Assembly: GCF_028641065.1 (NCBI RefSeq)
Contig: NC_073408.1
Coordinates: 7,130,001-7,194,000 of the forward strand
Origin: Leucoraja erinacea
Taxonomy: Eukaryota
Direction: 5' to 3'
Length of the DNA: 64,000 bases
A model generated the notes under the pieces. That model did not search any database. It had not been told where the DNA came from and saw only the letters and a program-made list of their open reading frames with translations. Position numbers and translations under genes: made by a program. This document shows positions 664-30,632 of this stretch, piece by piece (the stretch's first letter is position 1; each line of letters begins with the position of its first letter).

Positions 664-3600
664 AAGTTACCAGTCTGTTTGTTTGCTGTATTCCTGCCAC
701 TTTTATTCTCTTTTGATTTGGAACCTTCAATCTGAAACAGATATAGAGTGTGTATAAGTTGCTAACTTATTCCATAATAAAGTCACCATTCTAAGTCCGA
801 AAACTTGTTGCTGAATTCAGGAATTTACTACAAAGGGAGTAATGTACTTCCTCTTTACAAATTGTATAATGCAATCTCATTTTATAACATGATCGCTACC
901 TTTAAAATGTCATGTGTATTACAAGGATCTTTTTTTAATATGTAGTGATTAATGGCTAGATCAGCATCCCTAATTGACCTCAAAATACGTGAACAGCTAA
1001 GTGACTTCAGTGGGTAGTTAAGAAATATGAAACCCAGACAATGCGGGATCTGTAAAGGAAGATGAAGTGAGGAAGGCAGGTTTGATTTCTAATGAACATA
1101 CATCATTTTTTTCTTGGAATTTTCTTGTAACATGATTTTTTTTTCTCTAGTAAAAACACTTCCCACCATGTGATTAGATCCTAATGGAATCCGCTACATT
1201 AATGGAATGATAAATTACAAATCCTTTCACAGTAACAGCTGAGAGTTTAAGCTGTTAAGCTAATCACTAGCTGTTTATGACACAGCTGAGAGTTAGAAAC
1301 ATAGAAAAATAGGTGCAGTAGTAGGCCATTCGGCCCTTCAAGCCTGCACCGCCATTCAATATGATCATGGCTGATCATCCGACTCAGTATCCTGTATCTG
1401 CCTTCTCTCCATACCCCCTGATCCCTTTAGCCCCAAAGGCCACATCTAACTCCCTCTTAAATATAGCCAATGAATTGGCCTCAACTACATTCTGTGGCAG
1501 AGAATTCCAGAGATTTACCACTCTCTGTGTTAACTTGGCATAATGCCTGACACAGACATTGTGGGCCAAAGGGCCTGTTCACGTGTTGTTCTATGTAAAT
1601 GACACCTGAGGGCTTGGAAACTCACCGTCTTTTGCCGTGAATCCTGAAAAATGTCGACCTTCCAGATACATCCCATACAGTCAGGTGTAAGGCAGTCCAA
1701 ACCCAGAATATCCTGCAACATTTCAAGCAAAATCAGTTTTAGAAGTGAAAGGTACACTAGAGGCAACTGTGGAGGCCTCAATAGGCCCGACTATGGGTGA
1801 ACTGGGGTTGGGGACTGGACTTTGTGCCTTCCCTCATAATGGGAACCATTGTGGGGGGATGTTTTTTATGTTCTAAAACTCTTATTAATGTTATGTCTGT
1901 TCTTTCTTTATGTGCTGCAAAATGGCAATAAGCATTTCACAACACCTAGTGTGTATGTGACTAATAAAATACCTTTGATACCTTTTGATACTAAATACAT
2001 TTACTTTTATCATGACATCAAGCAGGAAATAAGACTATCGTTAATCTATGATAACAGCACAGACCTGCAATCTGGTCATACCCCCAGATTCTCTGGCCTT
2101 TCAAAGCATTGTTTTCTGTCTCATATCTTTGTTAGAAAAATGATCTAATCTGACTGTAGCCAATAGATGATTTATCATTTGAGTCCTTTAATGCACTACT
2201 TCCAAACGGAGAAACATTGCAAGAGACAAGGAAAGCATTTTGTTCAGCATGGACATGTTAGGCCAAAGAGCCTATGTCCATGCTGTATAACTCCTATAAA
2301 TACTTACTTTTTCAATTTTATCTTGGAACTCTTTAATTTTGCAGCGTTTCCAGCAGAATAAATGGTACTCGATACGGCAATCATAGCTGCAATGAACTCG
2401 GACAAAGCCCTGTAGAAAGAGAAAGTCCAACTTTTAATAACTCTATGCAGTGGAGTCAGCCACCCAGTATCCCTCGGGTGTGGGGATAACTGATTAAATG
2501 AGAATTGCTAAAAAACGAAACTACTGTAAATCACAAGTACTATATACTTAAACCTTTAAACAAAGTACTGGATTAGATCTCATCTGCCTACCTTTTTAAA
2601 TAACAATTTTAATACTGCAATAAAGCTGAACAGTATTAATGAACATTTTAAAAAAAATGAAAGACATCACAAAGCGCCTAGTTTTAAAATGGAATATTGT
2701 TGCTAATCAGCCTACAACTGTACAAAAGGACACAAAGTTCTGGAGTGATTCAGCAGGACAGGCAGCATCTCTGGAGAACATGGATAGGCGATGTTTCAGT
2801 CTGAGACCTTTCTTCAGTCTGATTCTTGGGGAGGACGGGGTTGAGTGAAGAAAGCTGGAAAAGGTCTACAGCACCATAATTTAACACGGCATTTCACAAC
2901 TTTGACTTTATGACAATTCAAATGAACATCAACTTATCCCTGACATTTACCGGCATATAAATTAAAAAAAATCCTACCTTGAAATCAGGATCGGACCTAT
3001 AAATGTCACATTTGTTGTTGTGGGTGCTACAGGATCGATAAAGGCAAACAGCATCAGGTCTCGGTGGACACAAACACTCTTTAAGAAGCGAGTTCAACAG
3101 GTCCTAGAACATAAAATACAACAAGGTAACTTAGCAAAAAAATAATTACAATTAAAATTGCAAGCTATAAATAATAATTGTTTTGTTACAACAACAAAAA
3201 AATCTGCTCAGGGCTCTTCATTGCACGTTTGCTTTTAACTGGGTTTTGAGATTACAGCATGGAAACAAGCCCTTCAACGCACCAAGTCCACAATGACCAT
3301 CGATCACCCGTTCACACCAGTCTATGTTATCCCACTTTCACATCCACTCCTTACACACCAGGGGCAATTTACAGAAGCCAATTAACCTACAAATCTGAGC
3401 ATCTTTGGGATGTGAGAGGAAACTGGAGCACTCAGAGGAAACGCACACAAACACGGAGAACATGCAAACTCCATACAGACAGCATCCAAGGTCACAATCC
3501 AACCCGGGTCCCTGTGAGGCAGTGGCTACAAGTTGTGAGGCAGCAGCTCTACCAGCTGCGACACTGTAAATACGGTATAATTATCAGACTTCCACAGGCA

Positions 3601-6600
3601 CCGGCTATGCACACATTTAACAACAGAATTACTTTAAAGGAAACACTTTTAACCCCCAGACAATGGCAAATTGGTTTATCCCTGCTCAATCACATTGCAA
3701 TTTCAATGAAATAATTCAGAAATCAATTATGCCATCAGACCAGCATTGGAATTATTCCACCCAAGCAGGACGAACTCACAGCAACCAATGCATAACCTTG
3801 TTGCTTGTGGCATCCTGCGACTGAGTAGAACAACAGAATTCTGAAGCTAAAGCTGGTTATGGCCTAACCAGTGTTGTACTCTGCACCAACCAGTTGGTCA
3901 GAAGAGGTCGATAGGCCTCATCAACAATAATTGTGTCAGCCACTGATGCCCATTGTATCCCCATAGGCAGATTTGACTTTTCATCTTGGATGTCAAAGCA
4001 CCTGGACCCACTGGCAAAGTCTCAACAGTCAATTCTGGCAGGTGAATATAGCCAGTTTATTCAATTTAATGGAAATAAATGTCACTTGAGATACAGCAAT
4101 ATTTTTCACATAATTAATAGCAATGGAATGGAAAAAACTCTGCTTCTCAAATGATCCCACCCTATGAATGTCTGTCATGGAATTTATTTTAATTGTAGCT
4201 TGTGTAAACAAGCAATGAACAAGTCTATGATGAGCATTTAATCTTGAACAAGGAATCTATTGCACAAAGGGTAGGATTGAGTAACTGCAAATTCCTAAGA
4301 GTCCTGTTCAAACAAGCCCCACAAGTGGTAGACAACTGAAGAGAAATCCAGTCAATCTTTATCCCCAGGGTTATAAATTACATGTAACTAGATGTTTGAA
4401 CAAGTCACCAGTAATTTTCCTGATCAACATCTGATTTCAGACACAAAGTGCTGGAGTCTCTCAGCATTTCTGGAGAACATACACTTTGTGTCATCCATGT
4501 TCTCTGGAGATACTGCCTGACCTTTTGAGTTTACTCCAGCACTTTACGTCTTTTTTTGCAAACTAGCATCTGCAATTCCTTGTTTCAACATCCAAATCCA
4601 CAGCACTCTGCCCCTAAGTGTTTGAAATTCTAATGAGGATATCGGTCCAAAATGCTATCACTGGAAAAAGGGAAGGATAGTCCAAATGCTGTCAGGGTCT
4701 AGAGTCCTGGTCACTTTCTACTGTTTCCCTTTTGATTGGTGCCTCTCTGAATATACTTACATCTAAAGTGAATATGTGGTGTAGTTTGTTTTGTATGGCA
4801 TTGCATCCCTTGCATCATCTCCATTCTGTAAATATCCATGTATCAAGCATTGAGCAAGTGTTAAACTCCAAAAAGTGTTAAATTGCCAAAACCAAAAGTC
4901 ATTTAGAATAATATGAATGTATTTTTTCTTGTTCACATCCAATCTGGATGAATTTAGCTCTCAAACTTACCCACTGCGTACTTTTCTTTCAAGAGAAATT
5001 AGTGTTTCTGAATCCTGGATTGTCAGGTCACCAAAAGTATTTCATTCCCAACTGGTTTTTACCCAGCTCATAAAGAATACAGCATTCCAGAAAATCGTAC
5101 GCTTTAAATATTTTCTAGATTTTTTTTCAAACGCAGCTTGTGCAAACATTACAGCAAATAGATGTAACCACTATGTTATATTCAATATCACTAACTTTAT
5201 TTTTCTCAGGAACCCTACTCAAATTATTGATTACCCAGTCATGCTCTCAGTACATTTATGCATAGGAACACTAAACTTGAAAGTCAAAAATATATCAAAT
5301 AACAAAATTCAATTGTATTCAGCAAGGATTCTAAGAATGTAACATTATTTAATAAAACAACTTTTCACTTACTGAATATACTCATTCAGCAGCTCAGATT
5401 GCAATGATTGTGCACCACAAAGGCATCAGCAAAAATAAAAAGGAATGTAATTTTTTACATTCAAAACAGAATATGCTGGAAAAATTCTGCAGGTCAATCA
5501 GCATCTGTGAAGGGCAAAACATTTGTTACTGGTCTGCAATCCTTTGTCATTTGCAGACCCAAAAAATAAATAAACCACTGAGAAACCATTCCGCACATAC
5601 TGCATTTTTTGTTGAATTTGTTGAATTTTTCCAGCATTTTCTATTTTGGCTCAAAATTTCCAGCTTCTGGAGTTTTTCTTAGAATCGTATAAAACTTTAT
5701 AATCCTACATAAATCTATCATGAGTAAAAACTATTTGGACTAACGCATGGGCATTCCTTACTTTCAATACACCATCCCTGGTTTCTTCAATGACAGTATC
5801 TGTGCCTGGCCACGTCTGAAGCCCTGGGACTAAACCACTCTCAACCAGCTTCAGAGACTCCTCCACAGATGATCTTGCTTCTTTATATCTAGAAGTAAAT
5901 TATCGAGTTAAATGTAACAAGGCAGAAACATTCTTGTATTCCTGTTCCTTTGTGAGACAAAAATACAAAAACCAGACCATCCCCCTGTATGCCTCCATTG
6001 TATTCAAGATAGTCTGAATATGTTGGAGCGATGCTCAGGTTTTTGTATTTTTGTCTCACAACGGAACAGGACTGCACCCGAGGACACAACAACATTTTCC
6101 TCCTCTCACCATATTCCCTCTAGTTTTCTACCATGGGGTAAAGACTGTGAGCATTCACGTTAACCAGGCCGATCATGATCTTGTATACTTCAATAAGTTG
6201 CTTCCGCTATTCTGTGAGTTTTAGAGGAGGGTGATTAGGTCTATGCTGGACTCACACACTCAGTCACATGAAGTAAGTATGTGATGGGAGGGATGGTGGA
6301 TTGCTTGGAACCTTGTGATTTGGTTATATTCTTTGTGCTTAGCCTGAGCATACAAGGCAAGGTGCTCAGTGCCTTCTTGGATGTGCATTTCCATCTTAGT
6401 GCCTGCTTCCAAAAGATGCATGCGCTCGTGAAGACATTACATGTTTTCAAATAAACACTGTGAATGTTTAAAGTGTTTCCTCTGTCCCCCTAAGCATTTT
6501 TTTGTAATCAGATTGTTGTGGTAAATGTTCATAAATCTCACTATTTCTTCTGCTAATCTTTTTCCTTGGGTTGAGGATCACTTGCTTCCAATGTTCTATG

Positions 6601-9600
6601 GATTCTGAGGTGGCTGGTGAGGTCATGTGGGATTCACAAACTCAGCTACAGGTGAGATAAATGGTCCTTGATGGGAAGGTGAACTTAATGTCAGGTATGC
6701 AGACAATATGGCACGCTCCTAAAATTGCTGGAGTGTGATTAGAGCCTCAATGCAGGAGATGCTGGCTGAGGAGATAAATCAGATGTTGTAGAATAGGCAA
6801 ACTCATGGATTTGGAGGATTTTGCAGCAAGGGCATTAGCAGTATTTTGAGCTGCCTGTCATATGTTGTCTGGTTAACTGTTTAAGATGATAGGGATCAGT
6901 GCTGTCTATAGACAAAATCAAACACTTTTCCTCAGCCAGCTCATGGTTGTGCTGGCACAATGACTGATGATGCCTTCAATAGTGAATTTCCATCACTGAG
7001 TGCATGCCTTCATGAAAAAAAGTGTGATTAAAATTTTATCCAAGTACAGGTAAAAACCTTTTACATGTTCCAGAAACCGAAAAGCTCCGAAAAGTCCAGA
7101 GCAGAAACCTTTTGGCGCCAAACCTACGGTCAACCCAGGTCTGGACTGTGGCTGCCTCCTTGCGGGAGAATCTGTCCATGCTTAAATGTAAAGAGGGCTT
7201 TTTGTGAAGGGGGGTGAAGGGGTAAACTTTAATTCTTAGTCCCCTATTAGACGGGGAGCGGTATGCCTTACCGGGTCGCTGTGCAGTACCGGTCAGCGGG
7301 CGGCGCAGGTTGTAGGCAACACCCCTGGCTGCGAGGCGCTCCAAATTGACGCCCCAGCTTACAGCGCATGTATGAGCTTTGGCCGCCTCACACATATGGA
7401 TTTTAAAACCAGGGGTAAAGTTCTCGGAGCTGTTAAAATCCAGCGACGCTCCCGAATTTCTCTGGTTTTGGAAAGACCGGTAAGGCATTTGAATCCCAGA
7501 CGCCGCCGACTCCCGACAGTTCTGGGAATTTGGAGCGCCTCGCAGCCAGGGGTAGAGTTGGTTCTGGGTCAAGATGGAGTCGCCGACCAGGTAGGTAGGG
7601 GACTAAGAATTAAAGTTTCCCCCTTCACCCCTACACCACCACCACCACATAAAATCCCTCCAAACTAACTGACTAACATTTATGCAAGTCTCCAGACTTT
7701 TCAACCGCCCCGCGCTACCCTAATCTACGCTAAAAAGCTTCCATTCTGAAATCCCTCCGAAATCCGACAAGTGGTCTGGTCCCAAGGCTTTTCGATAAAA
7801 CCGCAGATAATTACGACCGTCTTTAAATATCTGACCCGTTAGTATGCATTGCTCAGAGTGCTATAAATGTGACCTTTAATGTATATTTTCTCAGCTAAAA
7901 CATGTTAAAATACCGAATTTCTCTGGTTTTGGAAAGAATTTTTGAATGAGTTCCATTTGGAAATGACAAATTTCAAAAATCTGACCCGTTATATGCATTG
8001 CTCAGAGTGTATGGAAGCACATACCATTTGGAAATGAAAATCAAAAATTTCCATAAGTAAAGCACATACCTGTTCCATCGGATGTGGACACGGCTTAGAC
8101 CATAATATGAGAGGCAGGTGAAGTGGCTGGAATCTTCATCACTGAACTCATCAAAAATTTTCTTAAAATGCCGTTCAGCCTCTAAAACATCCTAAAACCA
8201 TCAATAAATTCAGGAGAAAAAAATAAATCATGTGTCATCCTCATAACTTATTCTCTACTGTAAGAAGGTAATGTATTTAGCCTACAACAGTTCACGGAGC
8301 ACTTTAGTATATTTTATTGATGTTGCTTTAAAATATTGTTCTTATCCAGTGACTTAAACCCATTACAAAAATTCTTTATCAATTATTTATCAATGTAGCA
8401 ATATTATTTTCTTGCCATGTACGCAGGGGAAAATTTCCCTTCTCGTGGCTCCAGTAAAAATGGAAAATGAAATTAGCCTCCAATACCATCTAGCAATTCT
8501 GTTGTAGAACTGTTTGTATTAATATATAGCATATCCAACATACTCAGGATAATTCCCTGCAGAAATAGCAAATAACGTTTTATACAACGCATATAAAGGA
8601 GATATTGGACTGGATGGCTTGTTCAGTGATAGGCTTTGAGGAGGAGGGAGAAGTGCCAAGATGGGTTATGGGAAGTAATTCTATTCACCAAATTATTATT
8701 TTGTTTAATGATGGGCGATAGATCAAGATTCAGAGGTAAACTTGGTGCTGTCATCAATGGAAATTATATAAAACTGTACTGCATGTTATAATGTAGCTTT
8801 CATTTAGACAAAGTTTGATGACTAGACCCATCCCACTATCATCGAAGAATAAAAATTCACACCTGAATTAAATTATTTCCCAGAAAGGCCAAGCCACAGG
8901 CGTACTCAATGAGTATGTACTCCATGGTAGTCAAGTTGTACACCTGTAATGGAAAATCAAATGAAATTAATAAATAGACTAACATCTAATATTCTGTTCA
9001 GACACACAATAAACTTCAGATGCTCGAATTTGGAGCAATAACAAAAGTTGGAAAAATTCAGCAGGTTGAGCAACATTTGCGGAGGCAAAAGAATGATTGA
9101 CCTTTCTGGTCGAGTTATTGTATCAGCAGTGAGTGCAGAGGGAAGATATTGAAGACTACACTCATCATTCTCCCCTAAATCTAAGCATATGATCACCCCA
9201 TCATGCTTCCACACAGGTTTTCAAGGATCCAACAAGAAAAAAAGTCATAACCTTTTTAAAATGTACTTAAATTTATTTTGTTTGTTGTGTTATCTATAAG
9301 TAATGTTTACAGACGTGTTACGGTGCTGCAAGAATTTAATCGTTCCGTTTTTGGTACATTTGACAATTAAACACTCTTGACTCGAAACTCTTGATAATCT
9401 ATGCTTTGCTAACAATCTGAATGCCTCCCAAAAGAAATCTAAATTCCTTCAACAAAAAAACATTCTCCACGTATTCTAGCTGTAATATTGCCTTTGCAAT
9501 GTTCTTTTTTACCTCTATCCAGTTCCTTTTCCCGCAAATAATTATTTTGCCAAATTGGTCTCAGTATCACTTTCATGTACAGCCTCTTTTACCAAATAAC

Positions 9601-12600
9601 GGCACTTAGAAACAAATGTGCAAATTAATTAAATACTCAGGATCTTTAGCATAGTCACCTGTACATGATGGTGGAAAGAGCTGCAAAGAACAAGGAGAAA
9701 GCCAAAACTGAGCAGCAATCAAATTAGAGGTGCTAAGGGTTCTTGACACATTTCATCATTTTTAAATTAAATCAATTCCAGGGAACATTTCATGGATTGA
9801 AAGGAGTTCAGACAATGGTCCGGATTTTTTATGACCACAAAATACTTTATTTCCTTTCAACTATTGTCGGAAGGATATAACCCAGTCAATGCTGAGAAAA
9901 GAAAACAATTCTTCTCGGTTGCAACCGTCTGGACTGACAACTTGACCTTTCTACATAAAAATGTAAAACCACAAAATAGCAAGATTCAGATATTAGGGAA
10001 AAACCTAAATGACTGAACTTTCTATCAGCGCCAAGTATAGCTTAGAGATTTTCAAGTACAGTCATCTATAAGGAATCTGGAACTGTACACTGCAGTCTCT
10101 ACAAAGAAATTTAAAGATAAACTAAATTTGGTGCCTATATAAGAGCAATTGACTTCTATTATTCAAGGAGAACACTTCAATAGATTTGCTGCTTTGTCCA
10201 AACAATGCAATGTAATATTACTGTGTTGTGTTATCTATAAGTAACGTTTTTGCAGACCTGTCACGCTGCTGCAAGTAAGAATTTAATCGTTCTGTTTTTG
10301 GTATTTCTTATCAAAGACTGCATTTGCAAAATAAGGAATATGTCAATAGTATTTAAAACATCTCTGACGGTGAAACTTACTTTCTTTTCTTTTATTAATT
10401 TAAGGGCATGCAGATAGTTTTCCTGAGCATTTCTAAAATTAGATGCCATCAGGGCCTCAGAAGCTTCTTTCAATTTGCATTTCAGCAACCTTTCTTCCAC
10501 CTGCAACATAAAGAGATGAATCAAAAACTTAAAAATGCTTAACAAGTAGATAATGAGATTATTCTTGTCTCACTGTCCAAGAAAATTGCTGTTTTACATT
10601 GTCATTAATACCACAGAATGCGTGATTCCAATAAAGCAGCACAATGCTATCTGAGCTAATATTACATACAAATTAATATTACTTAAATGGCAAGTTTTAA
10701 AAGCCAATGCACTTTGAATACTAAATCCACAACGTAAAAATAAATAAAGTGTCTTTTATAAAAGGTGCATATGTATCATTTTCCAATATTAACATCATGT
10801 TTCTAATCCTTACTAGCCTCTCGAAGTAAAGTGATCATGTTCCTGAGCCAAAAGGCCAGTGAAATGTTGGTCACCTTAAAATACAACCATGAAAACAGTG
10901 CACAGAACGAGATAGATCACAGTTATCTATCTAACAGTGGATTAATTGAACTCAAAACTTCAATTTTTATACACGTGACCTCTTCCAGAATACAGAGGCA
11001 TTTAAGAAAATCGTGTAAGCCAAAAACAGAAGTTGGAGATCAACTATCCTGTTGTCATACCTACTGCAAGACAATAAAAAGGATTTTGAGAATTTCCCAG
11101 ATATTCCACTGTAGAAATAATCAACTGCTCCCATTATTAAGTTATACTTGGAGGAATTCAATTAAATTATACTTTATTGTCACATGTACCTAGAAAGTAC
11201 CTAGGTACAATGCATAGCTTTATTTTTGCATACAACCTGGTAAAATTATAAAGCACACCTCACCTAGGCAATACCTAGCAGTCACCATGTTTCTGGCACC
11301 AACAAAGTTATATAAATGCACTAATTGATAGTCACTCAATGGTCCCAAAGGTCACTTAATTATTTGGTGCGTTCAGGGTGTGGTAATATTCAACAACTGT
11401 AGTAACTTTTCTTTCCTGGATAAGAAGTTACAACATCTCTAAATTTAATCAGAATTTCTATTGACTTCAAAAAAGACTGAAACATGAGAATTTAATTGTT
11501 GGATCTGCTGGACAATGATTCCAAAAGATTTGTTTTCGCCTCGGCCATTTTAAATCTGAAAAGTAGAAGTCAGGCCCAACACTCATCAAGAAGAGGTTGT
11601 GCGATTTCAAGCGTGTTCCTATTCTCGTAAATTTCGTAGATATTCTCATAAATCCATAAAATATTTCTGCTCTTGAAGCAATTTTGCAACAAATTGATGT
11701 TTGTTAGTTCTCCACCCAGACATCAGACAATTTAATCTGAACAGGATGAGGAGGATGCGACCAACGCATGCATACGCAGAAGACTAAACAAACCGCAATA
11801 TTTGTATTGGTTAAACTGAAGTCAACTATTCCGACCTATACATTAGATCAGAATGTCTGGAAAACTACTTTGAAGCTGCCCTAACTGAATTCCATCATTG
11901 TTGAGATATATAGCCAAATGATGGATAATTTAAAATGTCTGCCTTCATTAAACTCTGTTCTTGCCCTTATTTTCCAAAGACCAAAATTAAAAAATGATTG
12001 AATTCAAAGTCAAGGTCATTTTGTTTGACTTCTTCACATAGCTAATCTCTGATCTAAATCTCACAATCCCAGCACAAAAGTGTGGTAAAGCACCTCCAAT
12101 GCATGTTGTGTACGAATTTCAGGGTCTTTAAGAGGGTAAAGATCTAGTTAAGAAGTAATTCTGAGGGTAACGATCTTGTAACATTTAACAAGCTAAATTA
12201 TTGCAGTTCAATTGCAGACAAAATGCTGTCTTTTCATTGGAATAAAGGCTAATTGGCAAAAAAACAAAATTAAAAAAAAATTAACAAAGATAAAAACTGA
12301 GCATGATGAAAAGCTTATGTTTGAAAGGTTAGTGCCATACAAATATTATTTGAAACTTTGGGTTGAAAATACAAGAATATAAAGCTTCCCTCTCACGAAA
12401 GAGAAAAATAATTGGCATCAAACTTAAATTAGTTTTCCAATTATGCATTTTTTTGAAATTGCGTATTGCCTCAAGTATTGTCAGGGTGTAGGTGGAGTTT
12501 CATTATAAATATAGTCCACTACAACATTCAAACAAATGAAATCAGAAGAATCTGCTCGACAGTGCAAGTAAGCCAAACTTTCACATTTGCTTTGGGAATA

Positions 12601-18600: not shown

Positions 18601-21600
18601 CAACCGCTGTGCCACTGCATGGCCCTAGATTTATGAATATTATAATAAATTACTTAGGAGATTTAGCCAATCAGAAAGACATAATTTTTCAAATTAAATC
18701 ATTTAACTTAGGACAATAAAAAACAGAAAAGAAAATGTAAAACATTCTACCTGTCACTCTCCGTTTTCCCAATTTGTTTCTCTGAACACAAGCAGAAAAT
18801 ATGTGGAATTAGGACACACTTATTCATTAAATCTCAGTTTTCCAAAACAGGTGCTATTACTTTGTCCATCGTAAGTATTTACACAAACTTAATCAGTTTG
18901 TGTATGACCGGATATAACATTACTATGTCAATCATAATTTCTTCCTGAATAAACTAAAGTATTTCAGGGCTACATATAGACCAAGACACAAAGTGCTGGA
19001 GGAAGTCAGCGGGTCAGGCAGCATCTCTAGAGAGCATGGATAGGGGGAAGGAGGGTGAAAAAGGAGATGGAGGTTGCTGGTAGGTTATTTATCTGAAATT
19101 GGAGCATTCAGTGTTCATGGTGGTTATAATCTACCCAAGTAGAATATGAGGTGTTGTTCCTTTTGCGTGTGGCCTCACTTTGAGACTGGTGGTGGCTTAG
19201 GACGGAAAGGTCAGTATGGGAATGGGAGTTAAAATAGTTAGCAACCAGGGGATCCAACATTCCTTGGTGGATCGAACGCAAATGTTCGACAAAACAGTCA
19301 CCTAGTCTCTGCTTGGTCTTGCCGATGTACAGATATAAGTCTTTCAGCAGAATACAAATTAAGCGTCAAAAACTAAGTTATGGAAGATAGGTTTTCACTG
19401 AATGCTATCAATTATTCCTTAACTTTTATTATTGCTTGAATGGATGCTGATGCCACAATAATTGTTTTCTCAGAGTTATTTTGTTGCAGTCTATCTACTG
19501 ATGCAAAATACCGCTGCAGCATGCAAATACACCAAGTGTGAGAATTTTGACAAACCTTTCGATGAAAGTAATTGTTCAGTTTGAATCAGTTCTCGCTGTT
19601 CTGTCAAACCTTTTATGTTCAGTCCTTTCCTCTGACAGTCTCGAATACCCAACGAATTAGCCTTCAAAGCGCGCGTATACCATCCTTTTCCACACTGCGC
19701 TCCGGCAAACAGATAATGGCCCTAAAGGAGAACAAAGAAACATTAAAAGGAACTGTTGTTACTGAGGCCTTTTGGCATCAAAAGCGAAGGTGAAGAAACT
19801 GTGATCCCAGAAGGTGAGTGATCCTTCTAAAATTTCGTTCCACTTTTTTTTAACATAGTTTCGAATATTAAAGTTTGCAAATATTTGGAATCATTTAGAT
19901 TGAAGAGCAGAGGCATCACTGATACTTTGGGCTTGCTTTGCCAGAAACAGAAACTGAGTAAAATGTACCAGGTTTACATACCTCAATGGAATGAGGTTTC
20001 AGGACAATGCACCGCTTTGCATCACTCCATGCTTTTCTGTGAAGCAACAGGCAATGCAATGTTAACTATATAAAATGCAACGTGGTGATATTCATCATGA
20101 CATTAAATGAATAAAATATTCTCCATTTTGAGACAGAACACCACTATGTATATTTTTACGCAAATAAATTAACAACAGAATACTTTTAAATTCTCAGAAC
20201 AAAAAATCCTAAAACAAAATAAAAGGCCCAATAGTCTCCTAATTGTCTGTAAATGAAAATACTTTGTTTCTTAGTAAAGAGAAATATAGCCATTTGACAG
20301 TAGTTTTATGTAATTAACCAGTATCAAAACATGATTAACCAAATGTTCCAAAATAGTAAAATTAGCTAGATCTGTATTACACTAGATCAAAACAAAAATG
20401 AAGTCATAAATTCCCTGGCAATCTTATACCGGATACCTTAAATCACGTTGCTTTAATCATTTATCAACAGACATAACCAACTTAACTTCAAAGGATACCC
20501 CAATACATCCCATCCCCACATATTAATAAAATACACAATCTGGAATTACATTTTATCAAAGAATGAATGTCCAGAAAAGAGCAGAAGCAACTTACTTGTA
20601 TTGACATAATTGCAAATAGCAATATGATCTTTTCTCATACAACAAGTGATTGAATGCACTGAAAAGAAAAATATGCACAAATCAGTTTTTAGTACTGAAA
20701 CATTTCACAAATTGCATCAACATCATAACTCATATAGCATAAGAATTTATATTAACAATAAAGCACCATAAAAATAATGAATGCAAGAAAACAAGCCAAT
20801 TTTCATATGAGCTGTAAATGTTCTAATACATAACCCAAGTTTTGAGTTGTCTTATGAAATTCTTTTTCACAAAATCACAAACATTTTGTGGAGAACTGGG
20901 GGAAATCTCACCAGGATTTTGTGGTATCGCGTTTTGTTCATTAATCAGACAGAATGAATGTGGGTCTTGACAAGCTAGATGTGGAGAGGATGTTTCTCTC
21001 ATGTGGGAAAATGTATAACCAGGTGGCCACCGTTTAAAAACAAGGTCTAACCCATTTAAGACAAATATGAGGCGAGTTTGATTCTCTCAGACGGTTATGG
21101 GTATTTGGAACTAGATATTCTTGATATGTAAAGTAGTCAAAGATTACTATCGGTAGGTGGTAGTTCGAGTTTGCAAAAAGATATATCATGATCGAATGTA
21201 GTAGCAGGGTAGGCTTGAAAAGTTTACTGCCCCACTCCTGCTCCTAATTCACATGAAACCAAATACATGTGCATCCACTACAATTCATTAGTCTCATTCA
21301 CAAGTATGACAACAATTTTTACACCTTGCATAATCTCAGCATGGAAATTCTTACCAAACTCTTATTGCTTCATTTAAAGACTTCACCGCTAATTCATAAT
21401 GTTGTTTTTTCAAATCTGCTTCCCAAAGTTCATGAAATATTTTTGCTTGCTGAAAATTAAATAGGTAATTTTCATGTCCAAATTTAAAAAAAAATCAATT
21501 TCTATAAATCTACCCTACTTCATAAGCTTTTTCTACAAATTTAGTTTGATATCTTTACAGTCACATTGGAGAACCAGCACAGCACATTGCAACAAATCAG

Positions 21601-24600
21601 GATTCAACAGCAATGGTTCAAAAGGGATGACATTTTTGGCAAGAACATCTTATGTTACTTTGTAGGCATTTAGACTTTAGAGATACAGCGTGGTAACAGG
21701 CGCTTTGGCCCACCGAGTTCACACTGACCAGCAGTCATCTGATACAATGCACTATCCTACACAGTAGGAACAATTTACATTTTATTACCAAAGCCAATTA
21801 ACATACCAGCTTATATATCTTTGGAGTGTGGGAAGAAACTGGAGCACCTGGAGAAAACCCATGTGGTCATAGGCAGAACGTACAGGCTCTGTATAGACAG
21901 TACCTGTAGTCAGGGTCGAACCTGGGTCTCTGGCGATGCAATCAGCAACTCTACCTCGGCATCATTGTGCCGCCCTGTTTCACCATCCATGAGATAGATC
22001 TGATTTTTATGTAAATAAAATAGGATTGAACATGCAAGGGAGCAGTTTAACTTCAACACTGGCCCAAACCTTTTGGACTTGTTAACAACATGGATGCAGT
22101 TCAAAGCAATTAATAAGCTAGTTCGGTATTCCAAAAACGCAAGGAATCATGGGATTCGTCAAAGGACACCGGCCCGTTGCAGTGGCGACCCAGGCTACAG
22201 CCAGTGCGGAGAAGAAGCACTAACTCCACTGCTCCGGACCCATCAGTCCAGGGCAGTCGGTTAACCCAGCGGGACAGGCAAAGTTGAGCTGGAGTTAGCG
22301 CTTCTCCGCGCTGGCTGTAAGCCTGAGCCGCCACTGCAACGGGCCGGTGTCCTGTCAGTCCAGGGCTGGCGGTTACCCGGTGGGACAGGCAGAGTTGACC
22401 TGGAATTGCGCTTCTTCTCCGCGCTGGCTGTAAGCCTGACCGCCACTGCAACAGGCCGGTGTCCCATCACTCCAGGGTCACCCCGGACTTCTCCGGCCAC
22501 CCCCGGACAGGGATGGGACACCCGGGAGGGGACGGTTCAGTGGCAATTCAACATCGCTTGCAGCAGCGGGTTCAATCCTGACTACGGATGAAACGCAGGT
22601 CTGTATTCATGCAGCAGCACAGCTGCCGAGAATGTTTATCGCGAGTGACCTATGACCTGGGCATGTACAGTCGGACGACCAAACGTGCTTATTCAAATAG
22701 GTTTTCTTATTTCTTGGGCAAAATTTTTATAAAATCTACCTTCTTTTACAATTGATTAGCATTGCTAATGTTGGTGGAAGAACAAATAAATGATATACAT
22801 TTCTAAAATTACAACATTGTGTACTTTAAAAGGATAAATTATTACTTTTACGCAGACCAGTTGAATCGCTTACCTGCTTTTCCTGAACGCACTGATCTTC
22901 AAATTGCTCAAACAGATTCTGATCAATAGAATACTGCTTTATCAAATTAAAATCTGCAACAAAAAAATGTGAAAATATATTTTCATATCAGGAGTTTTTA
23001 GCTTTCATGTTCCTCAGAGTATTTAAACATGTACAAGTGGTACGTACCAATTGATGTGGCTTCTGTGCTCAATTGCTTTTGTTGAGTCTATTTAGCCCAT
23101 GATAATTTAACAAGCTCATGTGAACTAATTAAATTACAATCAATCAGGACCAAATCAGTAATTCCAAAAGTTGTATGGATCTTGTATTTCAGTTTTAACT
23201 CCTGCTTCGCTGAACAACTGGATGACGCGGAATAATGAAGCTGAACAAGTGTCCATTCCTCACCAGCCACAAGTTGCTATGATTCACTACTCTCTAACTT
23301 CCCATTACATCAATTGCTTTATAATCAACTTACAGACCACTGTTTGATATCTGTTTTCCCCACTCCGACCTTTCCAAATCAATGAATCATTTTTGCTTGC
23401 CTAATCAGAGATTAGCCAGCCTCAAGCCATATCCCAATAATCTGATTATTCCAACCAGTGTTTTGGCATTTTCTGGCACATTTCACACTCTGGTCCTTTC
23501 CAGGACCAATTATTTGCTGCTCTACCTTTTCCTGCTTTGACATGGCAGTTGTCTCTACTAGCTTGTCAATCTCCGTACCACCCATGAAACAGTAATCAAA
23601 AGGAATATGACAAATTTGCAAATGAAACATTTCCTTGATTATTATATGTATCCATGAACTTTATAAAACAATCACTTTCTCAACATTAACCCTTCCAAAT
23701 GTTCCTCTCCCAACTCTGCTATGCAGAAAATAACTAATGGCTGACAAAACCTAAGCCTCCTATATAAATTCAAAACATGCCACGAGACACAAAATGTATA
23801 TCACAACTAAAGTGTTATACACAGTGGCAGGTGATGTAAATGTACCAATGTTTTCATGCTGATTATTTTGCCAACCAACATTTAAATTAACTTTTTTCCA
23901 GCAAAAATCCATTAAAAATAAATCCTCATGTGCAATCAGAAGTTTTAAACAGAGTTCAGAATTCTTAGTTCCAGTTTAGTTTATCATATCATGTGATAAG
24001 ACTAGAATTAGGCCATTCGGCCCATTAAGTCTACTCCACCATTCAATCATGGCTGATCTATCTCTCCCTCATAACCCCATTCTCTTGCATTCTCTCCATA
24101 ATCTCGGACAACCGCCTATTGTCAAGTGTACCGAGGTATAAGTTAGCAGAAACACAATACATTATTACAATCGATCCATTTATTGATACATAAGGGATAA
24201 GGGAATAACGTTATGTAGCACCAAGCAGTACTCACAATGAAGGCCGGTAAGTGCGAGGATTGTAGCCACTTGCATTTTATTTCCAACTGTTATTTCCCAG
24301 GCGTCCCGAAAAATCTTCTGCTGCTTTACAACCTTTATTGCCTCTTCCAAAGTGGAACACTGAAAATAAGACCTTTAGCTTAGAAATGAATATGCCCCAG
24401 GAGATAATGACAGAAAAGAGAATCAGCTTTCATTTAAAAATGGTAAGCACATGTTGTTCCATTCAATACACTGTACACTACCAGTCAATTCTTTCAGAAT
24501 GGATATACTGCTGCCGTAAAGCACTATTTTTAGTTACATTAGTCTTTGAATGAAAGATCCCTTTATATTCCGCAACAGCCATGATTCTTCATTTTACAGG

Positions 24601-27600
24601 AGTGAAGAATCTTTTTCTTTAGCAAAACAAAATGTGGGATAAACCAACAGATCCAACTCTATTTTTTAAGTTTAGTTTAGAGATACAGCATGGAAATGGG
24701 TCCTTCGGCCCACCAAATCCGTACCGACCAGCGATCCCTGCACATTAACACTACCCTACACACACTAGGGACAATTAACACTTATAACAAGCCAATTCAT
24801 ATGCAAACCTGTACATCTATGGAGTGTTGGAAGATCTCAGCAAAAACCTATGTGGTCACGGAGAGAAGGTACAAACTTCATAGACAGCACCCGTAGTCAG
24901 GATCGAACCCGCATCTCTGGCGCTGCAAGCACTGTAAGGCAACAACTCTACAGCTGCGCCACCATGCCGCCCAAAGTGTGGAGAAATGAAATGACGTTTC
25001 AGATCAAGAGAACTGCTATATCTGATTCTTTGTTGTTGTGCTGCTTGAAATATTTCATCACAGAGCCATTTTAAAACACAAAGGTAGGGATTGATCATGT
25101 CTATTCTCTCCCTGTCTGAACTGCTGTGCTCCTCCCACACTTTGAGTTTTCCCTCAAGATTCCAGTATCTCCTTGTGTCTCAAGCATTTTTTTAGGTTTG
25201 TTGTGAATAGCCAGGGAAGTTACATGCTACAGAGGAAAAAGTGTTTCCCTTCTGAAAATGGACTTAGGTGTAATTAAAATAATGGCCTTTAGGACAATGG
25301 AGATTTTGACCACACCCTGGTGGAGGATATTGTGGTTGTCCACCTGTTATACATTTTGATCCATTTTACTTCGGGAACTTCTTAATTATGTACTTTGTCT
25401 CATGCTTTAAAACAGCTCAACAAAACTAGAAAAATAATTTGGTTTTACCTGAACAAGGTTTTCATTAACAACACGAACAAACTGGATCAGCAGTGGTCGC
25501 TTCAACTACAAGATAATTAGAAAATAAATCAAAATACACCAATTAGGAGACCAGAATGAGACATTATAACACCAGGCCAAGTTTTAGATACTTACAGCAT
25601 ATACAAGCAGGGCTCTATGTGCAGATTCCAAAAGTTCTATGATCTTCAGTGTTTTGAGATCAAAGTCTTGAAGTTCACCACAACTACAAGAAAAATAGTC
25701 ACATGAACTATAGTTACAAGAAACTTACAATGCTGTATGCAGCGCATTTAAAAAGTTATCATAGAGTCATAGTCATACAGCAAGGGAAATGGTCCATTGG
25801 CCCAATTCATCCTTTCCAACCAAGATGCCCAATCTTAGCTAATCCCATTTGCCCACATTTGGTCCGTATCCTTCCATGTACTTTCCACCGATCCATGTAC
25901 CTATCCAAGTGTATTTTACATTTGATTATTGTACCTGTAATGAGGTGACCAGAACTAAATGCAATACTCATAAGCAGCCTAACCAAAGTCTTATGGAGGT
26001 GCGTCATAATTTCCTAACTCCTGTAATCAATGCCCTGACCAATGAAGGCGAGTGTAATTCTTTACCACTCTACCACTACTGTTTACCAAGTTGCCAGATA
26101 TACTGTATAACTTACTCCTCAGGTTGGATGAGCTTTGCTTCAACAGCCCAGTTCCTGTACAGTTCATCTGTGTAAGGCCGACCAAAAAGAATAGGGCTCA
26201 GGAGCTGGACTTTTACAATGTGGCAATATCTCTTCAAAACTGATGTCCTCAGGTAACTCCATTGGTTAGGGATCAGAACTGCAATTAAGAACATACAATA
26301 ATTTAGAAAAAGAACAGCAACTGTATATCCCAATCTAATTAATCGCCAACACAATGCTCAGTAGAATTGGGCTAAATAGCAATAATATAGCAGTGAATGT
26401 GAAAAGCTGTATTTTCCACCCCACTGCATTGTCAGTAGCTATTGCAGTGCATAGTTAGTTTCACAACATTTTCTCACACAACTATTACATTTCTTATGTA
26501 ATAACAGGCAAACAGTTTTAAACTATCAAGCATGAGAGATATGCAGAACCCATCAATTTCATGGCTAAATATGACAGAATTTAACTCGATATTTCAATGA
26601 TGTTTCTCAGAATGGAGGCCTGTGACTAGTGGTGTGCCACAGGGTTCAGTGCTAGGCCCGTTACTGTTTGTCATCTACATCAATGATTGGGATAACATAC
26701 AGGGCAAGATTAGCAAGTTTGCTGATGATACAAAAGTTAGTGGTTTTGCAGATAGTGAAGGTGGTTGTGAACGATTGCAGCAGGATCTGGATTTTAATAA
26801 AGGATTTTTAATTTAATACAGAGAAGTGTGAGATGTTGCATTTTGGGACGTCGAACAAGGGCAGGGCCTACACACGTCTCTGAGTAGTGTTGTAGAGCAG
26901 AGGGATCTAGGAGTACAAGTGCATGGTTCCTTGAAGGTCGAGTCGCAGGTAGATAAGGTGGTCAAAAAGGCTTTTGGCACCTTGACCTTCATCAGTCACA
27001 GTAGTAAGAAAAGAAGTTGGGAGGTCATGTTGCAGTTGCATAAGATGTTGGTGAGACCGTATTTAGAATATTGTGTTCAGTTTAGGACACCATGTTATAG
27101 GAAAGATATTGTCAAGCTTGAAAGGGTTCACAAAAGATTTACGAGGTTGTTGCCAGGACTAAAGGATGTGAGCTATAGGGAAAGGTTGAGTCGGCTGGGT
27201 CTCTATTCCATGGAGTGTGAGAGGATGAGGGGAGATCTTATAGAGGTGTACAAAATTTTACTCAAAGTGGGGGAATCAAGGACCAAAGGACATAGGTTCA
27301 AGGTGAAGGGGAAAAGATTTAATAGGAATCTGAGGGGTAACTTTTTCACACAGATGGTGGTGGGTGCATGGAACAAGCTGCCAGAGGAGGTAGTTGAGGC
27401 TGGGACTATCCCATTGTTTAAGAACAGGTATATGGATAGGACAGGTTTGGAGGGTTATGGACCAAGCGCAGGCAAGTGGGACCAGGGTAGCTGGGGCATT
27501 GTTGGCCGGTGTGGGTGAGTTGGGCTGAAGGGCCTGTTTCCACACTGTATCACTCTATGACTCTAAGCGCCTGACAAATAATAACACCAACATAAAAATC

Positions 27601-28474
27601 GTCATAATTATTATTTTATAAATATAAATCCCCCTCTTTACATATTCAGAATGTTAGTACAGTATTATGATGTGCTAAGCTCACAATTTAAATCAGCAGT
27701 TTTGTTCCAGTTGGCACACCTCAAGTTGTCTTACCTTCAAGGCTTAATTTTGGTGGTTTAAATGGAGGAAACCATAGTCTTGATTCCTGCAAAAACAATG
27801 TCATAGTTCCAGCAAATCTATTAGTGATTTATGAATTACATGTCAAATAATGATCAATTTACCCAGCAAGATAGGACTAAAGTAAGTATTTACTTTGTAC
27901 TCAGGAATTTAAAAAATATATAGTCTGCTTTCAGTGGCAAGAAAAACTGGTTTTGGAATAAGCAGTGAGTCATTTAGGATGGGCACAAGCAGAAATTCCC
28001 CGAGTCAGAGCCTTGTTGAATTTTGGTATTCTATATCCAGTTGCTAATGAATGCTCAATCAGCAGATAGCGTTCAGGCTGAGATGAACAGATGTTTATGT
28101 TTTGTATATGCATATATTTACAAATGGAATAATTCTTTGATAATGAACAATATACAAATTAAAATAATATGCCACTGCTGTTGTGTTCCATAGTAGTCTA
28201 TCAAGTCAGCAGATTATTCAGAAAAGGATGGTAACCCATACAATCAGAGATTAGGGGATCTTTACAGTGGTATTGTTGTCATTAGGTAACAATACTATTT
28301 TTTAATATTGCAGATTTAAGGTTCCAATAGTCAAATAAAAAGTACTTTTATGAGAAAAAAAATAGCCAGTTCTACTCTTTCGTAATGACTTACCTCGTCA
28401 GAGGAAACTAAATCAGGTAAATCACTTGAATCAGATGTAGAACCATCATCACTGTCCCAAATCTCTGGGTTCAT
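664..28474 (-). CDS. TTC3/DZIP3-family protein (TTC3-like, probable E3 ligase); first ~851 codons, gene continues past the left edge
   Basis: 23 AG/GT-bounded exons with consistent phases, 5'->3': 28474-28394, 27786-27735, 26278-26116, 25683-25596, 25505-25449, 24359-24236, 22953-22874, 21449-21355, 20658-20596, 20036-19982, 19721-19556, 18781-18751, 18288-18108, 15016-14643, 14137-14026, 10500-10381, 8943-8863, 8191-8070, 5888-5762, 3103-2978, 2409-2308, 1712-1626, 731-664. Peptides recall TTC3: [19 protein letters not shown]; TPR-like [35 protein letters not shown]; [15 protein letters not shown]; [46 protein letters not shown]. Family match is from memory; orthology unresolved. Confidence 0.85.
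1294..1530 (-). mobile_element. CR1 LINE 3' end
   Basis: [25 protein letters not shown] followed by a typical CR1 3' UTR and tail. Confidence 0.8.
3247..3565 (-). mobile_element. tRNA-derived SINE (HE1/V-SINE type)
   Basis: Minus-strand tRNA-like head (GCAGCTGGTAGAGCTGCTGCC..GACCCGGGTT), V-domain GGAGTTTGCATGTTCTCC..TTTCCTC, and CR1-like tail. Confidence 0.75.
7046..7800. mobile_element. Non-autonomous DNA transposon (Tigger/pogo-like) with internal inverted repeat
   Basis: TA|CAGGTAAAAACC start; GGGGTGAAGGGGTAAACTTTAATTCTTAGTCCCCT (~7211-7245) is inverted at ~7598-7631. Confidence 0.5.
13367..13535 (+). mobile_element. Tc1/mariner terminal inverted repeat remnant
   Basis: Ends AAAAGTTCAAGGGGTATGAATACTTTTGCAAGCCACTG|TA, a typical Tc1 TIR followed by the TA target. 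Confidence 0.8.
17035..17316 (-). mobile_element. HE1/V-SINE copy
   Basis: Same architecture as 3247-3565. Confidence 0.75.
18327..18625 (-). mobile_element. HE1/V-SINE copy
   Basis: Same family. Confidence 0.75.
18984..19329 (-). mobile_element. Penelope-like element fragment
   Basis: Minus translation [21 protein letters not shown] (GIY-YIG) linked to the AGACACAAAGTGCTGGAG terminal repeat. Confidence 0.75.
21668..21975 (-). mobile_element. HE1/V-SINE copy
   Basis: Same family. Confidence 0.75.
22164..22463. repeat. GC-rich inverted plus direct repeat block
   Basis: 22164-22228 is the reverse complement of 22290-22352; ~110-bp direct repeat 22244-22352 / 22356-22463. Confidence 0.75.
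24668..24972 (-). mobile_element. HE1/V-SINE copy
   Basis: GGGCGGCATGGTGGCGCAGCTGTAGAGTTG head and (CTAAA)n tail. Confidence 0.8.
26608..27565 (+). mobile_element. 5'-truncated CR1 LINE (RT C-terminal part)
   Basis: [29 protein letters not shown]; [32 protein letters not shown]; CTCTATGACTCTA tail. Confidence 0.9.
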
Positions 28475-29849
28475 AATTGCAATAAAGGAACTGGAGTATT
28501 AAAATTCGACATTTAACATTTCCCAACACCTTCTGGCAACCAATTTTCTCCTGACAAAACAAAATTAGATAATCAACAAATTTCACGCATGCAATATTAT
28601 TAAAACTCCCACGTGTTTTCACTGGGCTATGCACGCACTAATTTGAAAATTAACCTGTAGTTGAAATGTAAACAAAAATAAAATGCAAATAACAGCATGA
28701 AACAAAAAACTATCACCCCTTGCAAAATAAACTTAACCCTGAGTGTGGCCACATGCACCTACCCTGGCACTTAATAACACAAAGCATTATGTGAATGCTG
28801 CTTTAAAAAAAAGCAACAAACTGCTTAAAGAACTCAGTAGATCAAGCAGCTTCTGTGGAAGCAGAGGGATAGGTTAGTTGACCTGAAAAAATATCTGCTG
28901 TTCCATGCCTATGCAAAAAATAAGAATTCATAGAATACCTTTCACTTGTCAGATCACTACTAAGTACTTAAAAGCTACATGGTATATCTGATGTGTGGTC
29001 ACTGTTTAAAAATGCAAGGAAGCAAGCTCTCTCCAACAGCAATGTGATAATAAAAATTATTCCCCTCTGTTATCTGTTAACAGTCCTTCCATTAACTAGA
29101 GTACTGTCCAAATTACCTCTACTCCATTGCGCCTACTGGACTGTCTATGGAACTGCTGAGAACATATTCTACATTTTGCATCATCCCCTTTGCTTTACCT
29201 TTTGTACTTGAGTTTGGCTTGTTTGTATATATGTGTAGTATTATCGGATCTGATTGGATGGCATGCTAGCTGTGAACAATAATAAACCTAAGCCTAATTC
29301 TGGTTTATTGGTGAAAAAAGACAGTGCCAGAATAACTCAGCGGGTCAGCATCTCGGAACAACACGGATAGATTACTGTTCGGGTCGGGACCCTTGCTCAG
29401 ACTGATTCCGATTAATTGATGCTGATTAAGATATAAATATTGACCTGGAAGAACTAAGGTGTTCTTCTCTTGTTCAAAATACACCATCCAAAACATCCAA
29501 GTGTGGCATTCCCCCATTACTGCATTGCCGACAGTACTCATGTGATGCAGTTTGCTCAGCCCTGCCCCTCCAGCAATGCAATAATTCCTTGTTGCTGTAC
29601 TTTCAGGTCAGTGTTTAGTGCTCAGGACAAGGGGTTACAGGGGAGGGCTATTGGGGGAGTGAGCGCATGGGTTTTGGGGGAGGGCCACTGGGGAGGTTTA
29701 TTGGGTAGGAGGGCAGAGGAAATTGTTATTGGGAAGGGACACGCAGGGAGGGTTATTTTAGGAAGCAGTACACGGGGGGGGGGGGGGGGGGTTATGAGGG
29801 ATACTGGTGGAGGAGTGCACAGGAGAGGGTTATTGGCTTAAGGGACCAA

Positions 29850-30140
29850 TATTATTGGGGAAAGGGGGGGAACGGGAAAGTTATTGGGGAAAGGGGGGAG
29901 AGGAGAGGTGTATTGGGGAGACAGGGGGGAGGGTTATGGGGAAAGGGGGGACAGGGAGAAGGTTATTGGGGAAAAGGGGGGGATAGGGGAAAGTTATTAG
30001 GGAAAAGGGGGACAGGAGAGGTGTATTGGGGAGACAGGGGAGGGTTATTGGGGAATGGGGGGGACAGGGGAAAGTTATTAGGGAAAAGGGGGACATGAGA
30101 GGTGTATTGGGGAGACAGGGGAGGGTTATTGGGGAAAGGG
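29850..30140 (+). repeat. G-rich tandem repeat (~21-bp units) in intron 1 of the TTC3-like gene
   Basis: Repeated TTATTGGGGAAAGGGGGGACAGGGGAAAG / GTATTGGGGAGACAGGGGAGGG; decayed flanks from ~29620 to ~30300. Confidence 0.85.
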
Positions 30141-30329
30141 GGAGATAGAGGAGGGTGAATGGGGATGAGGTCACGGGGGGAGAGGGCATAGGGTGGGATA
30201 TTGGAGAAAGAAGTACAGGAGAAGATTGTAAGAGGAAGGGAGCACAAAGGGTGACTGGAGGAAGGGAAGTGGGAGGAGGGGCAGTGCGAGAGCTTTGGAG
30301 GGTCAGGGTTCGATATCAGCAGCCGCTCT

Positions 30330-30565
30330 CCTGCTGTCCTCAACTAGACGTCAACCGGGCCGCAGGGACCTCTTGCAGGGCGGCGAACGCTTCCAATAGC
30401 GCCCACCGTCGCCCCAACAACCCGGTACGGCCGCGAACACCCACCTCAGACCCGCAGCCACCACCGCATCTCCCTTCGAGCACTCACCGTCCGCCGATAA
30501 GATGGCGGCCCCACCACCCATCTCGCGAGACTGGACCGCGGGGCATGCTGGGGATTGTAGTCCTC
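30330..30565 (-). promoter_or_regulatory. CpG-island housekeeping promoter and short non-coding exon 1 of the TTC3-like gene
   Basis: CpG-rich. YY1 motif AAGATGGCGGC 30499-30509; palindrome TCTCGCGAGA (BANP/ZBTB33-type) 30521-30530; ZNF143/ACTACA-type GACTACAATCCCCAGCATGCCC on minus 30541-30562; minus-strand donor ACG|GTGAGT with exon end at 30488; next exon acceptor at 28550. Confidence 0.8.
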
Positions 30566-30632
30566 CCATCACAATGAGCCACCAAGGGCTTGGCAACAAA
30601 TGACTCTAAATGGATGGAATATTGACCTTAGA

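Follow-up and report, generated by a model that had tools for sequence, protein, structure and literature searches.

Which member of the TTC3/DZIP3 family lies beside the two hspa8 genes of Leucoraja erinacea, and what can its product still do? We addressed this on a stretch of 64,000 nucleotides (NC_073408.1 of assembly GCF_028641065.1, positions 7,130,001 to 7,194,000 of the forward strand; the window below, numbered from its first letter), in which the gene LOC129712320 is already annotated but uncharacterised. No published description of this gene or its orthologs was found in the literature searched, most subscription papers lying outside its coverage. With somewhat more confidence than doubt we read it as a TTC3/DZIP3 paralog, intact and spliced, that has neither the RING nor the clamp that binds EEVD tails. 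Its likely origin is the first vertebrate genome duplication, bony vertebrates have likely lost it, and its product is likely a non-catalytic scaffold.

A search with a single exon matched Amblyraja radiata LOC116991350 at 98%, and the protein of the latter maps back to the window as 23 minus-strand coding exons. The model of LOC129712320 accordingly has 23 coding exons on the minus strand, running from the ATG at 28474 to 664; together with the Pfam matches described below, it bears out the long in-phase gene with a TTC3-like N-terminus, tetratricopeptide repeats (TPRs) and a Cys-rich domain proposed in an earlier note on this DNA. All acceptor and donor flanks are AG or GT with consistent phases, and the 2555 nt of coding sequence translate into 851 stop-free residues. 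The window holds residues 1-851 of 1559, the other 708 lying beyond base 1. Over these 851 positions the model shows no differences from the L. erinacea protein XP_055516627.1 (P0206, 1559 amino acids), 13 from the Amblyraja protein P0001 and 4 from a protein read from a Logan contig (P0210). The parts of the gene, all on the minus strand, are as follows.

30488-30565, minus strand: putative promoter and non-coding first exon, CpG-rich, placed from sequence only and outside the coverage of the RNA-type contigs; candidate donor GTGAGT at 30487
28394-28474, minus strand: coding exon 1, residues 1-27; acidic N-terminal motif with a D-L-P-D-L-V-type core, common to invertebrate TTC3-like proteins
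22874-27786, minus strand: coding exons 2-7 (27786-27735, 26278-26116, 25683-25596, 25505-25449, 24359-24236, 22953-22874), residues 28-215; TTC3-type N-terminal domain, 73-86% identical in 4 orthologs
19556-21449, minus strand: coding exons 8-11 (21449-21355, 20658-20596, 20036-19982, 19721-19556), residues 216-341; first TPR block, clamp positions changed
14026-18781, minus strand: coding exons 12-15 (18781-18751, 18288-18108, 15016-14643, 14137-14026), residues 342-574; acidic Ser-rich linker, poorly conserved (31-64% identity in 4 orthologs)
5762-10500, minus strand: coding exons 16-19 (10500-10381, 8943-8863, 8191-8070, 5888-5762), residues 575-724; second TPR block
1626-3103, minus strand: coding exons 20-22 (3103-2978, 2409-2308, 1712-1626), residues 725-829; PF19179 TTC3/DZIP3 Cys/His domain, a predicted C4-H-C3 zinc finger
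664-731, minus strand: coding exon 23, residues 830-851; last exon within the window, donor GTAAGT, the gene running past base 1

The putative promoter overlaps a region (30250-30549) with a GC content of 0.66 and an observed/expected CpG ratio of 0.84, compared to 0.46 for the window, and carries motifs at 30561, 30530 and 30509 that we take to be of the ZNF143, BANP and YY1 types.

Splicing was followed with contigs mapped to 501-20500, X1 and X2 being taken as RNA by guess. Record 2 of X1 (2364 nt, depth about 5.6) covers 2977-3102, 5761-5888, 8070-8190, 14643-15016, 18108-18288 and 19556-19720 with contiguous record coordinates, and where the record leaves two gaps, of 314 and 31 nt, the intervening exons of the model have exactly these sizes. 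A further 65 nt of this record run on past exon 23, and LOC129712320 therefore continues off the left end of the window. Record 6 of X2 independently joins three exons. Exons are thus joined in both contigs; the evidence comes from these contig pieces only, the raw-read runs X16 and X20 being dominated by repeat-derived reads. P0210 is a full 1559-residue open reading frame (ORF) on a 5637-nt contig, ends at the same RING-less tail, and must derive from spliced sequence because a contig of this size cannot contain 28 kb of introns. LOC129712320 is intact and spliced.

The protein belongs to the TTC3/DZIP3 family. Pfam analysis returned TTC3_DZIP3_dom (PF19179, E 1e-41), TTC3_9th, the TTC3 helical domain and a TPR, with PF19179 scoring 141.8 bits against a curated cut-off of 26.9. 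In P0206, PF24905 scored 43.3 and PF24525 28.1 bits against a cut-off of 27; both map beyond the window, and PF24525 is below detection in some orthologs. Searching with residues 570-850 gave 35 matches, 16 of which were cartilaginous-fish proteins at 71-100% identity, followed by TTC3 at 39%; over the second TPR block and finger, identity to canonical TTC3 is about 36-42% for tetrapod sequences. Orthologs were found in 17 species in all, comprising skates, rays, sharks and one chimaera (including a Hypanus fragment and Leucoraja itself), and their lengths range from 1441 to 2063 amino acids. Lineage-specific tandem expansions were observed in the Ser/Asp-rich linker of P0004, P0010, P0011 and P0013, in the exon at 14643-15016 of the window.

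On the question raised in the earlier note, rays and skates do have separate TTC3 and DZIP3 loci, and these are RING-bearing. In Mobula birostris, the RING-bearing TTC3 (XP_072116110.1, P0038) is on a 198-Mb contig and the third gene (P0005) on a 67.9-Mb contig; Hypanus likewise has a separate RING-bearing TTC3 besides the third gene. In L. erinacea, a DZIP3-like protein (XP_055500325.1, P0268) is encoded on a 56.1-Mb sequence and LOC129712320 on one of 26.9 Mb. LOC129712320 is therefore a third gene of the family, distinct from canonical TTC3 and DZIP3. The contigs carrying TTC3 and DZIP3 are of the same size in Mobula hypostoma and also in Hemitrygon, which suggests that the two genes share one chromosome in these rays. 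As a side observation, DZIP3 and TTC3 appear to lie on one chromosome both in rays and in skate, suggesting an intrachromosomal origin of DZIP3, and shark and mammalian DZIP3 proteins (P0147, P0215-P0238, P0268) keep a TPR2-like block before the finger.

To define the species range, we used an index-free search of 1.84 billion protein representatives, and the best 150 of 280 matches were examined. The paralog profile scored best in 3 of these 150, all from cartilaginous fish, and the named bony-vertebrate matches were all annotated as TTC3 (coelacanth, lungfish, bowfin, reedfish, smelt, mormyrid, caecilian, newt, echidna, gundi, birds, lizards and turtle). Only one DZIP3 was among the best 150, which shows that fast-diverged relatives can drop out. 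The idea that the gene was lost in mammals is too narrow: the protein databases yielded no bony-vertebrate ortholog among the matches examined, and the third gene was probably lost across bony vertebrates, judging from the sequences retrieved.

The phylogenetic position was determined with a careful IQ-TREE analysis of 41 rows and 287 columns (8 of 49 rows were dropped, mostly close relatives of kept rows) and with concatenated approximately unbiased (AU) tests on 20 rows and 882 columns (9 of 29 dropped, again mostly close relatives); trees quoted for 882 columns are quick trees. In the 287-column tree, the paralogs form a clade supported at 100/100 with a stem of 1.29 (1.3-1.6 across trees), placed outside a group of lamprey plus DZIP3 and TTC3 (95/91). 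DZIP3 groups with TTC3 (94/83), apart from the paralog, and all copies fall inside a vertebrate clade (99/92); together with the 882-column test given next, this puts the split before that between sharks and bony fish, as expected of an ohnolog. A grouping of the paralog with ray TTC3 was rejected on 882 columns (p = 0.001), and ray TTC3 grouped with bony-vertebrate TTC3 at a Shimodaira-Hasegawa-like approximate likelihood-ratio test (SH-aLRT) value of 99 on the same columns. An assignment of LOC129712320 as the TTC3 ortholog is contradicted by its separate clade and by this rejection on 882 columns, and an assignment as the DZIP3 ortholog by the lack of HEPN_DZIP3 and RING and by its position outside the DZIP3 clade. 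The earlier note had considered that the protein might nest among TTC3 orthologs in a genome with no other TTC3; what we found is a separate clade and a separate RING-bearing TTC3.

Human TTC3 lies close to KCNJ6 and DYRK1A, and head-to-head with PIGP. Within the published paralogon 13, quad B contains the Hsa11q24/Gga24 genes KCNJ5, KCNJ1 and APLP2 and quad D the Hsa21/Gga1 genes KCNJ6, KCNJ15 and APP, the topology ((A,B),(C,D)) meaning that these quads split at the first duplication (PMC8040251). Skate data in SI Table 10 of PMC10115646 place two Hspa8 baits at 7.17-7.19 Mb of Leri_32C, with Dzip3-1 and Dyrk1a on Leri_13C, and put Clmp at 12.6 Mb, about 5 Mb from the Hspa8 pair. We infer that the hspa8 pair of the window is this bait pair. 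In the same annotation Ttc3-2 carries zf-RING_2 (LE06338) and its ID falls between two Leri_13C genes, which would place it on that chromosome; Ttc3-1 (LE06587, no Pfam) is probably not our gene because its ID falls in the Leri_13C block. The terms 'pigp' and 'bsx' had no matches in the skate supplement of that paper as accessed, and the parts of PMC7269912 searched (text and supplements) do not give the assignment of chicken chromosome 24. Published skate positions and quads B and D thus put the copies on chromosomes separated at the first duplication, the quad of TTC3 being deduced. Taken together, the tree and the synteny speak for an origin at the first vertebrate genome duplication, and DZIP3 would have arisen later on the TTC3 side. 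The proposal of the earlier note, a third family gene that is most likely a genome-duplication paralog on a chromosome with human 11q23-25 orthologs, agrees with the trees, the separate loci and the synteny. In addition, accession numbers hint at 11q23-type linkage, with chimaera CADM1 (XP_007894301) near the paralog XP_007894295 and thorny-skate NECTIN1 (XP_032905843) near XP_032905809.

Several points weigh against this reading. The trees leave the dating unsettled, as the AU tests did not reject a jawed-vertebrate-only clade (p = 0.254 and p = 0.339), and a shark-specific TTC3 duplicate was not rejected on 287 columns (p = 0.086). In the concatenated quick trees, lamprey joined TTC3 with an SH-aLRT of no more than 19-46. 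The stem leading to the paralogs is long, the lamprey sequence is incomplete and of unusual composition, and the branching among outgroups cannot be trusted, with a coral protein placed beside amphioxus. TTC3 and DZIP3 do not occur in the paralogon table of PMC8040251, and the quad was assigned through neighbours. The apparent loss in bony vertebrates draws on protein databases and on the best 150 of 280 matches. Because the window does not contain the 3' half of the gene, the absence of the RING was read from models of the orthologs and from a single protein derived from a contig. The putative scaffold role is deduced from module content.

The same gene with the same missing modules could be younger, from the second (jawed-vertebrate) duplication or from a segmental duplication in the jawed-vertebrate stem, its deep position being a long-branch effect. 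The lamprey-free clade kept by the AU tests and the stem length are consistent with this, as is the faster evolution and greater loss of beta segments (PMC10115646), but the careful tree joins lamprey with TTC3 and DZIP3 at 95/91, and chromosomes of the 11q24 and chromosome 21 type lie on opposite sides of the first duplication in PMC8040251. We consider a younger origin unlikely, and favour the first duplication.

Within the protein, the paralog keeps the acidic N-terminal motif, the N-terminal domain, two TPR blocks, the PF19179 finger, a coiled coil and PF24905. The second TPR block was modelled at a predicted local distance difference test (pLDDT) value of 93.7 and matched TPR folds up to Z 17.2 (root-mean-square deviation (rmsd) 2.5, 138 residues aligned); a fold search with this block and the finger together returned TPR folds only. 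Other modules are missing. Profiles for the RING, the winged-helix and the CARD-like block were built from 14 TTC3-type proteins, the 8 controls being 6 profile members and 2 DZIP3 proteins from outside the profile. The RING, which the earlier note had thought probable, had a negative bit score in every one of the 17 paralog sequences (among them the truncated chimaera model P0011) and one of 92-122 in the controls. The winged-helix PF24812 reached at most 4.5 bits in paralogs, as against 125-186, and the CARD-like block at most 1.0 bits compared to 239-276 in vertebrate TTC3. In ray and coelacanth TTC3 (P0038, P0040), residues of about 747-826 give a CARD-domain Pfam match above cut-off, which is weak in invertebrates and absent from the paralog. 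All 16 complete paralog sequences end instead in a new conserved acidic tail, LPLGD(L/I)LE(L/M)EGxFDx(L/M/F), which none of the other proteins retrieved contains. Between skate and chimaera, identity is 70-78% in the folded blocks and 31% in the linker, which points to strong constraint on the paralog outside the linker. A non-catalytic scaffold is the most likely role because the RING and clamp are gone and the other folded blocks are nevertheless constrained, and for the same reason the remaining modules (N-terminal domain, TPR2, PF19179 finger and coiled coil) are expected to have a function of their own.

The protein might still be a ubiquitin ligase if its PF19179 finger served as an atypical RING or hemi-RING that binds an E2. 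Its candidate zinc ligands are C744, C749, C773, C777, H782, C785, C807 and C812; seven of these eight are invariant in 49 family sequences and C749 is present in 46 of 49, a nearly invariant, cross-brace-like set. The finger domain of a shark ortholog was modelled at pLDDT 93.1, and the top structural row for the model was the UBR4 E3 module (Z 3.7, rmsd 5.0, 85 aligned), with a RING-H2 at Z 3.0. However, the finger alone gave no structural match at E<=0.001 or Z>=5 (Foldseek best E 1.3), and its matches are tied among RING, ZZ and unrelated folds, indicating neither a new nor a different fold and speaking neither for nor against E2 binding. The ESM Atlas gave one 0.77 lead for the finger and nothing usable for the N-terminal domain. 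TTC3 has the same finger beside a true RING, and the RING is named as the critical E3 element in a review on TTC3, whose functions are ascribed to TPR motifs and RING (PMC9239942). We regard ligase activity of the finger as quite improbable, and favour a non-catalytic protein.

The first TPR block belongs to the HOP/PP5/SGT2 sequence class (best E 1e-9), and the five clamp positions were set by aligning ray TTC3 to HOP TPR1 (HOP K8, N12, N43, K73 and R77; consensus K5/N9-N6-K2/R6 in PMC2939883). In place of K, N, N, K and R the skate protein has H221, E225, K256, E286 and L290. None of the five clamp residues is kept in any of 15 paralog orthologs, and the Asn-to-Lys change at K256 and the Lys-to-Glu charge reversal at E286 are invariant across them, whereas all 14 vertebrate TTC3 and all 10 invertebrate proteins have K/R-N-N-K-R/H at these positions, with 4-5 of 5 exact. 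Skate and chimaera nevertheless share 75% identity over the block, which was therefore remodelled and did not decay. The canonical TTC3 clamp, near-complete from coral to mammals in 24 of 24 proteins, was observed alongside; TTC3 is not mentioned in a human clamp-TPR network survey (PMC6212638). An intact Hsp70/Hsp90 clamp from corals and molluscs to mammals amounts to a prediction about TTC3 itself.

The location of LOC129712320 beside two genes for EEVD-ending hspa8 products, together with the class of its first TPR block, could suggest an Hsp70 co-chaperone tied functionally to that pair, the link hinted at in the earlier note, and known co-chaperones do tolerate single radical clamp changes (PMC2939883). 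Here, however, all five positions are replaced in every ortholog, including the invariant charge reversal at 286, and the three-unit heat-shock-element pattern found at both hspa8 promoters had no match at the LOC129712320 promoter. This role therefore seems a little less probable still than that of an atypical ligase, and we read the position beside hspa8 as inherited synteny, not function. Least probable of all is a cartilaginous-fish-specific TTC3 copy that moved to this chromosome and that bony vertebrates never had: the known range and the 287-column test would allow it, but the rejection on 882 columns, the grouping of ray TTC3 with bony-vertebrate TTC3, the N-terminal motif common to paralog and invertebrates and weak in ray TTC3, and the location on the paralogous chromosome all argue against it.

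On our preferred reading, this copy would have changed fast after the duplication, and ubiquitin-ligase function and binding of Hsp70/Hsp90 tails would have been dropped. A short acidic-hydrophobic C-terminal motif would have been gained, and the copy would then have come under strong constraint. Partners might be bound via the remodelled groove of the first TPR block, the second TPR block, the zinc finger and the coiled coil, and the protein would most plausibly serve as an adaptor in the pathway to which its ligase paralogs belong, or compete with them there, the new tail providing a docking motif. A complex prediction of tail residues 1525-1559 with residues 40-345 scored 0.00 with no controls folded, and is evidence neither way. 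TTC3 itself is reported to occur in neurons mainly as an N-terminally truncated form located on 40S subunits (PMC10041068); the TTC3 modules look separable, because translation from Met402 would leave out the first TPR block. A bolder version can be put forward only tentatively, and we doubt it more than we believe it: a pseudo-ligase of roughly half a billion years, first-duplication sister of TTC3 plus DZIP3, that discarded RING and clamp, rebuilt its TPR groove, acquired a docking tail and, in sharks and rays, now regulates the pathway of TTC3 and DZIP3. If true, it would be a natural separation-of-function allele, showing the Down-syndrome-region protein TTC3 without ubiquitin transfer or Hsp70 binding. 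The family picture is corrected in that there were three TTC3-type genes in jawed vertebrates, the third of which cartilaginous fish still keep. What is new is the disarmed architecture; shark-retained ohnologs and catalytically dead paralogs are already known kinds, and no general principle is changed.

The rest of the window holds the following features.

35640-39046, minus strand: hspa8/hsc70 copy 1, coding span; hosts SNORD14 at 36323-36416 and 35886-35979
48862-57035, minus strand: hspa8/hsc70 copy 2, coding span; SNORD14 not detected
61987-62061, plus strand: tRNA-Asp(GTC)-like gene, Rfam score low; may be a pseudogene

The upstream neighbour of LOC129712320 is thus the 3' end of hspa8, followed by a second hspa8, and both copies end in GPTIEEVD, in line with the two EEVD-bearing chaperones described earlier. 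No PIGP-like partner is visible upstream, as also noted before: none of 43 plus-strand ORFs of at least 30 amino acids in 30560-35640 corresponds to PIG-P, with one weak unrelated match, a search that covers the divergent strand only and would miss shorter exons. Two exons of the tandem hspa8 copies are 96-97% identical and the other six matched blocks 73-87%, suggesting local gene conversion or stronger constraint. The two SNORD14 copies lie in introns of copy 1, one of them below the gathering score. Heat-shock-element-like triple units were found at 40962-40974 and 59021-59033, in both hspa8 promoters, with a third match at 45549-45561.

Compared to known systems, LOC129712320 shares with TTC3, a RING-H2 E3 ligase represented by Mobula birostris P0038, the N-terminal domain, two TPR blocks, PF19179, PF24525 and PF24905 in the same order. 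Within Mobula the two are about 35% identical in TPR1, and TTC3 differs in having the RING, the winged-helix PF24812, the CARD-like block and a clamp of 4-5 of 5 residues, all of which the paralog lacks (clamp 0 of 5), in lying on another chromosome and in lacking the C-terminal motif. DZIP3 (L. erinacea P0268) shares PF19179 after a TPR2-like block, PF24525, PF24905 and the missing winged-helix, but keeps the RING and HEPN_DZIP3 (PF18738) and is without the TTC3 N-terminal domain and TPR1. Carboxylate-clamp co-chaperones (HOP, PP5, SGT2 and CHIP) have a TPR1 of the same sequence class, none of whose five consensus residues the paralog keeps. The 19 ohnologs kept in cartilaginous fish and lost in bony fish (PMC10115646, whose text names wnt6b and cspg5 among retained ohnologs) have the same pattern of retention and loss, and LOC129712320 may be one of them; loss of a catalytic module is not mentioned in the passages of that paper at hand. 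The invertebrate TTC3-like proteins of amphioxus (P0086), Saccoglossus (P0085), Lingula (P0090) and Mytilus (P0032) share the D-x-P-x-L-V-type motif, the N-terminal domain, both TPR blocks and the finger, but have retained a RING, the clamp (4-5 of 5 residues in all 10 invertebrate proteins compared) and, in those tested for it, the winged-helix; because they have these modules, their absence from the paralog is a loss in its lineage.

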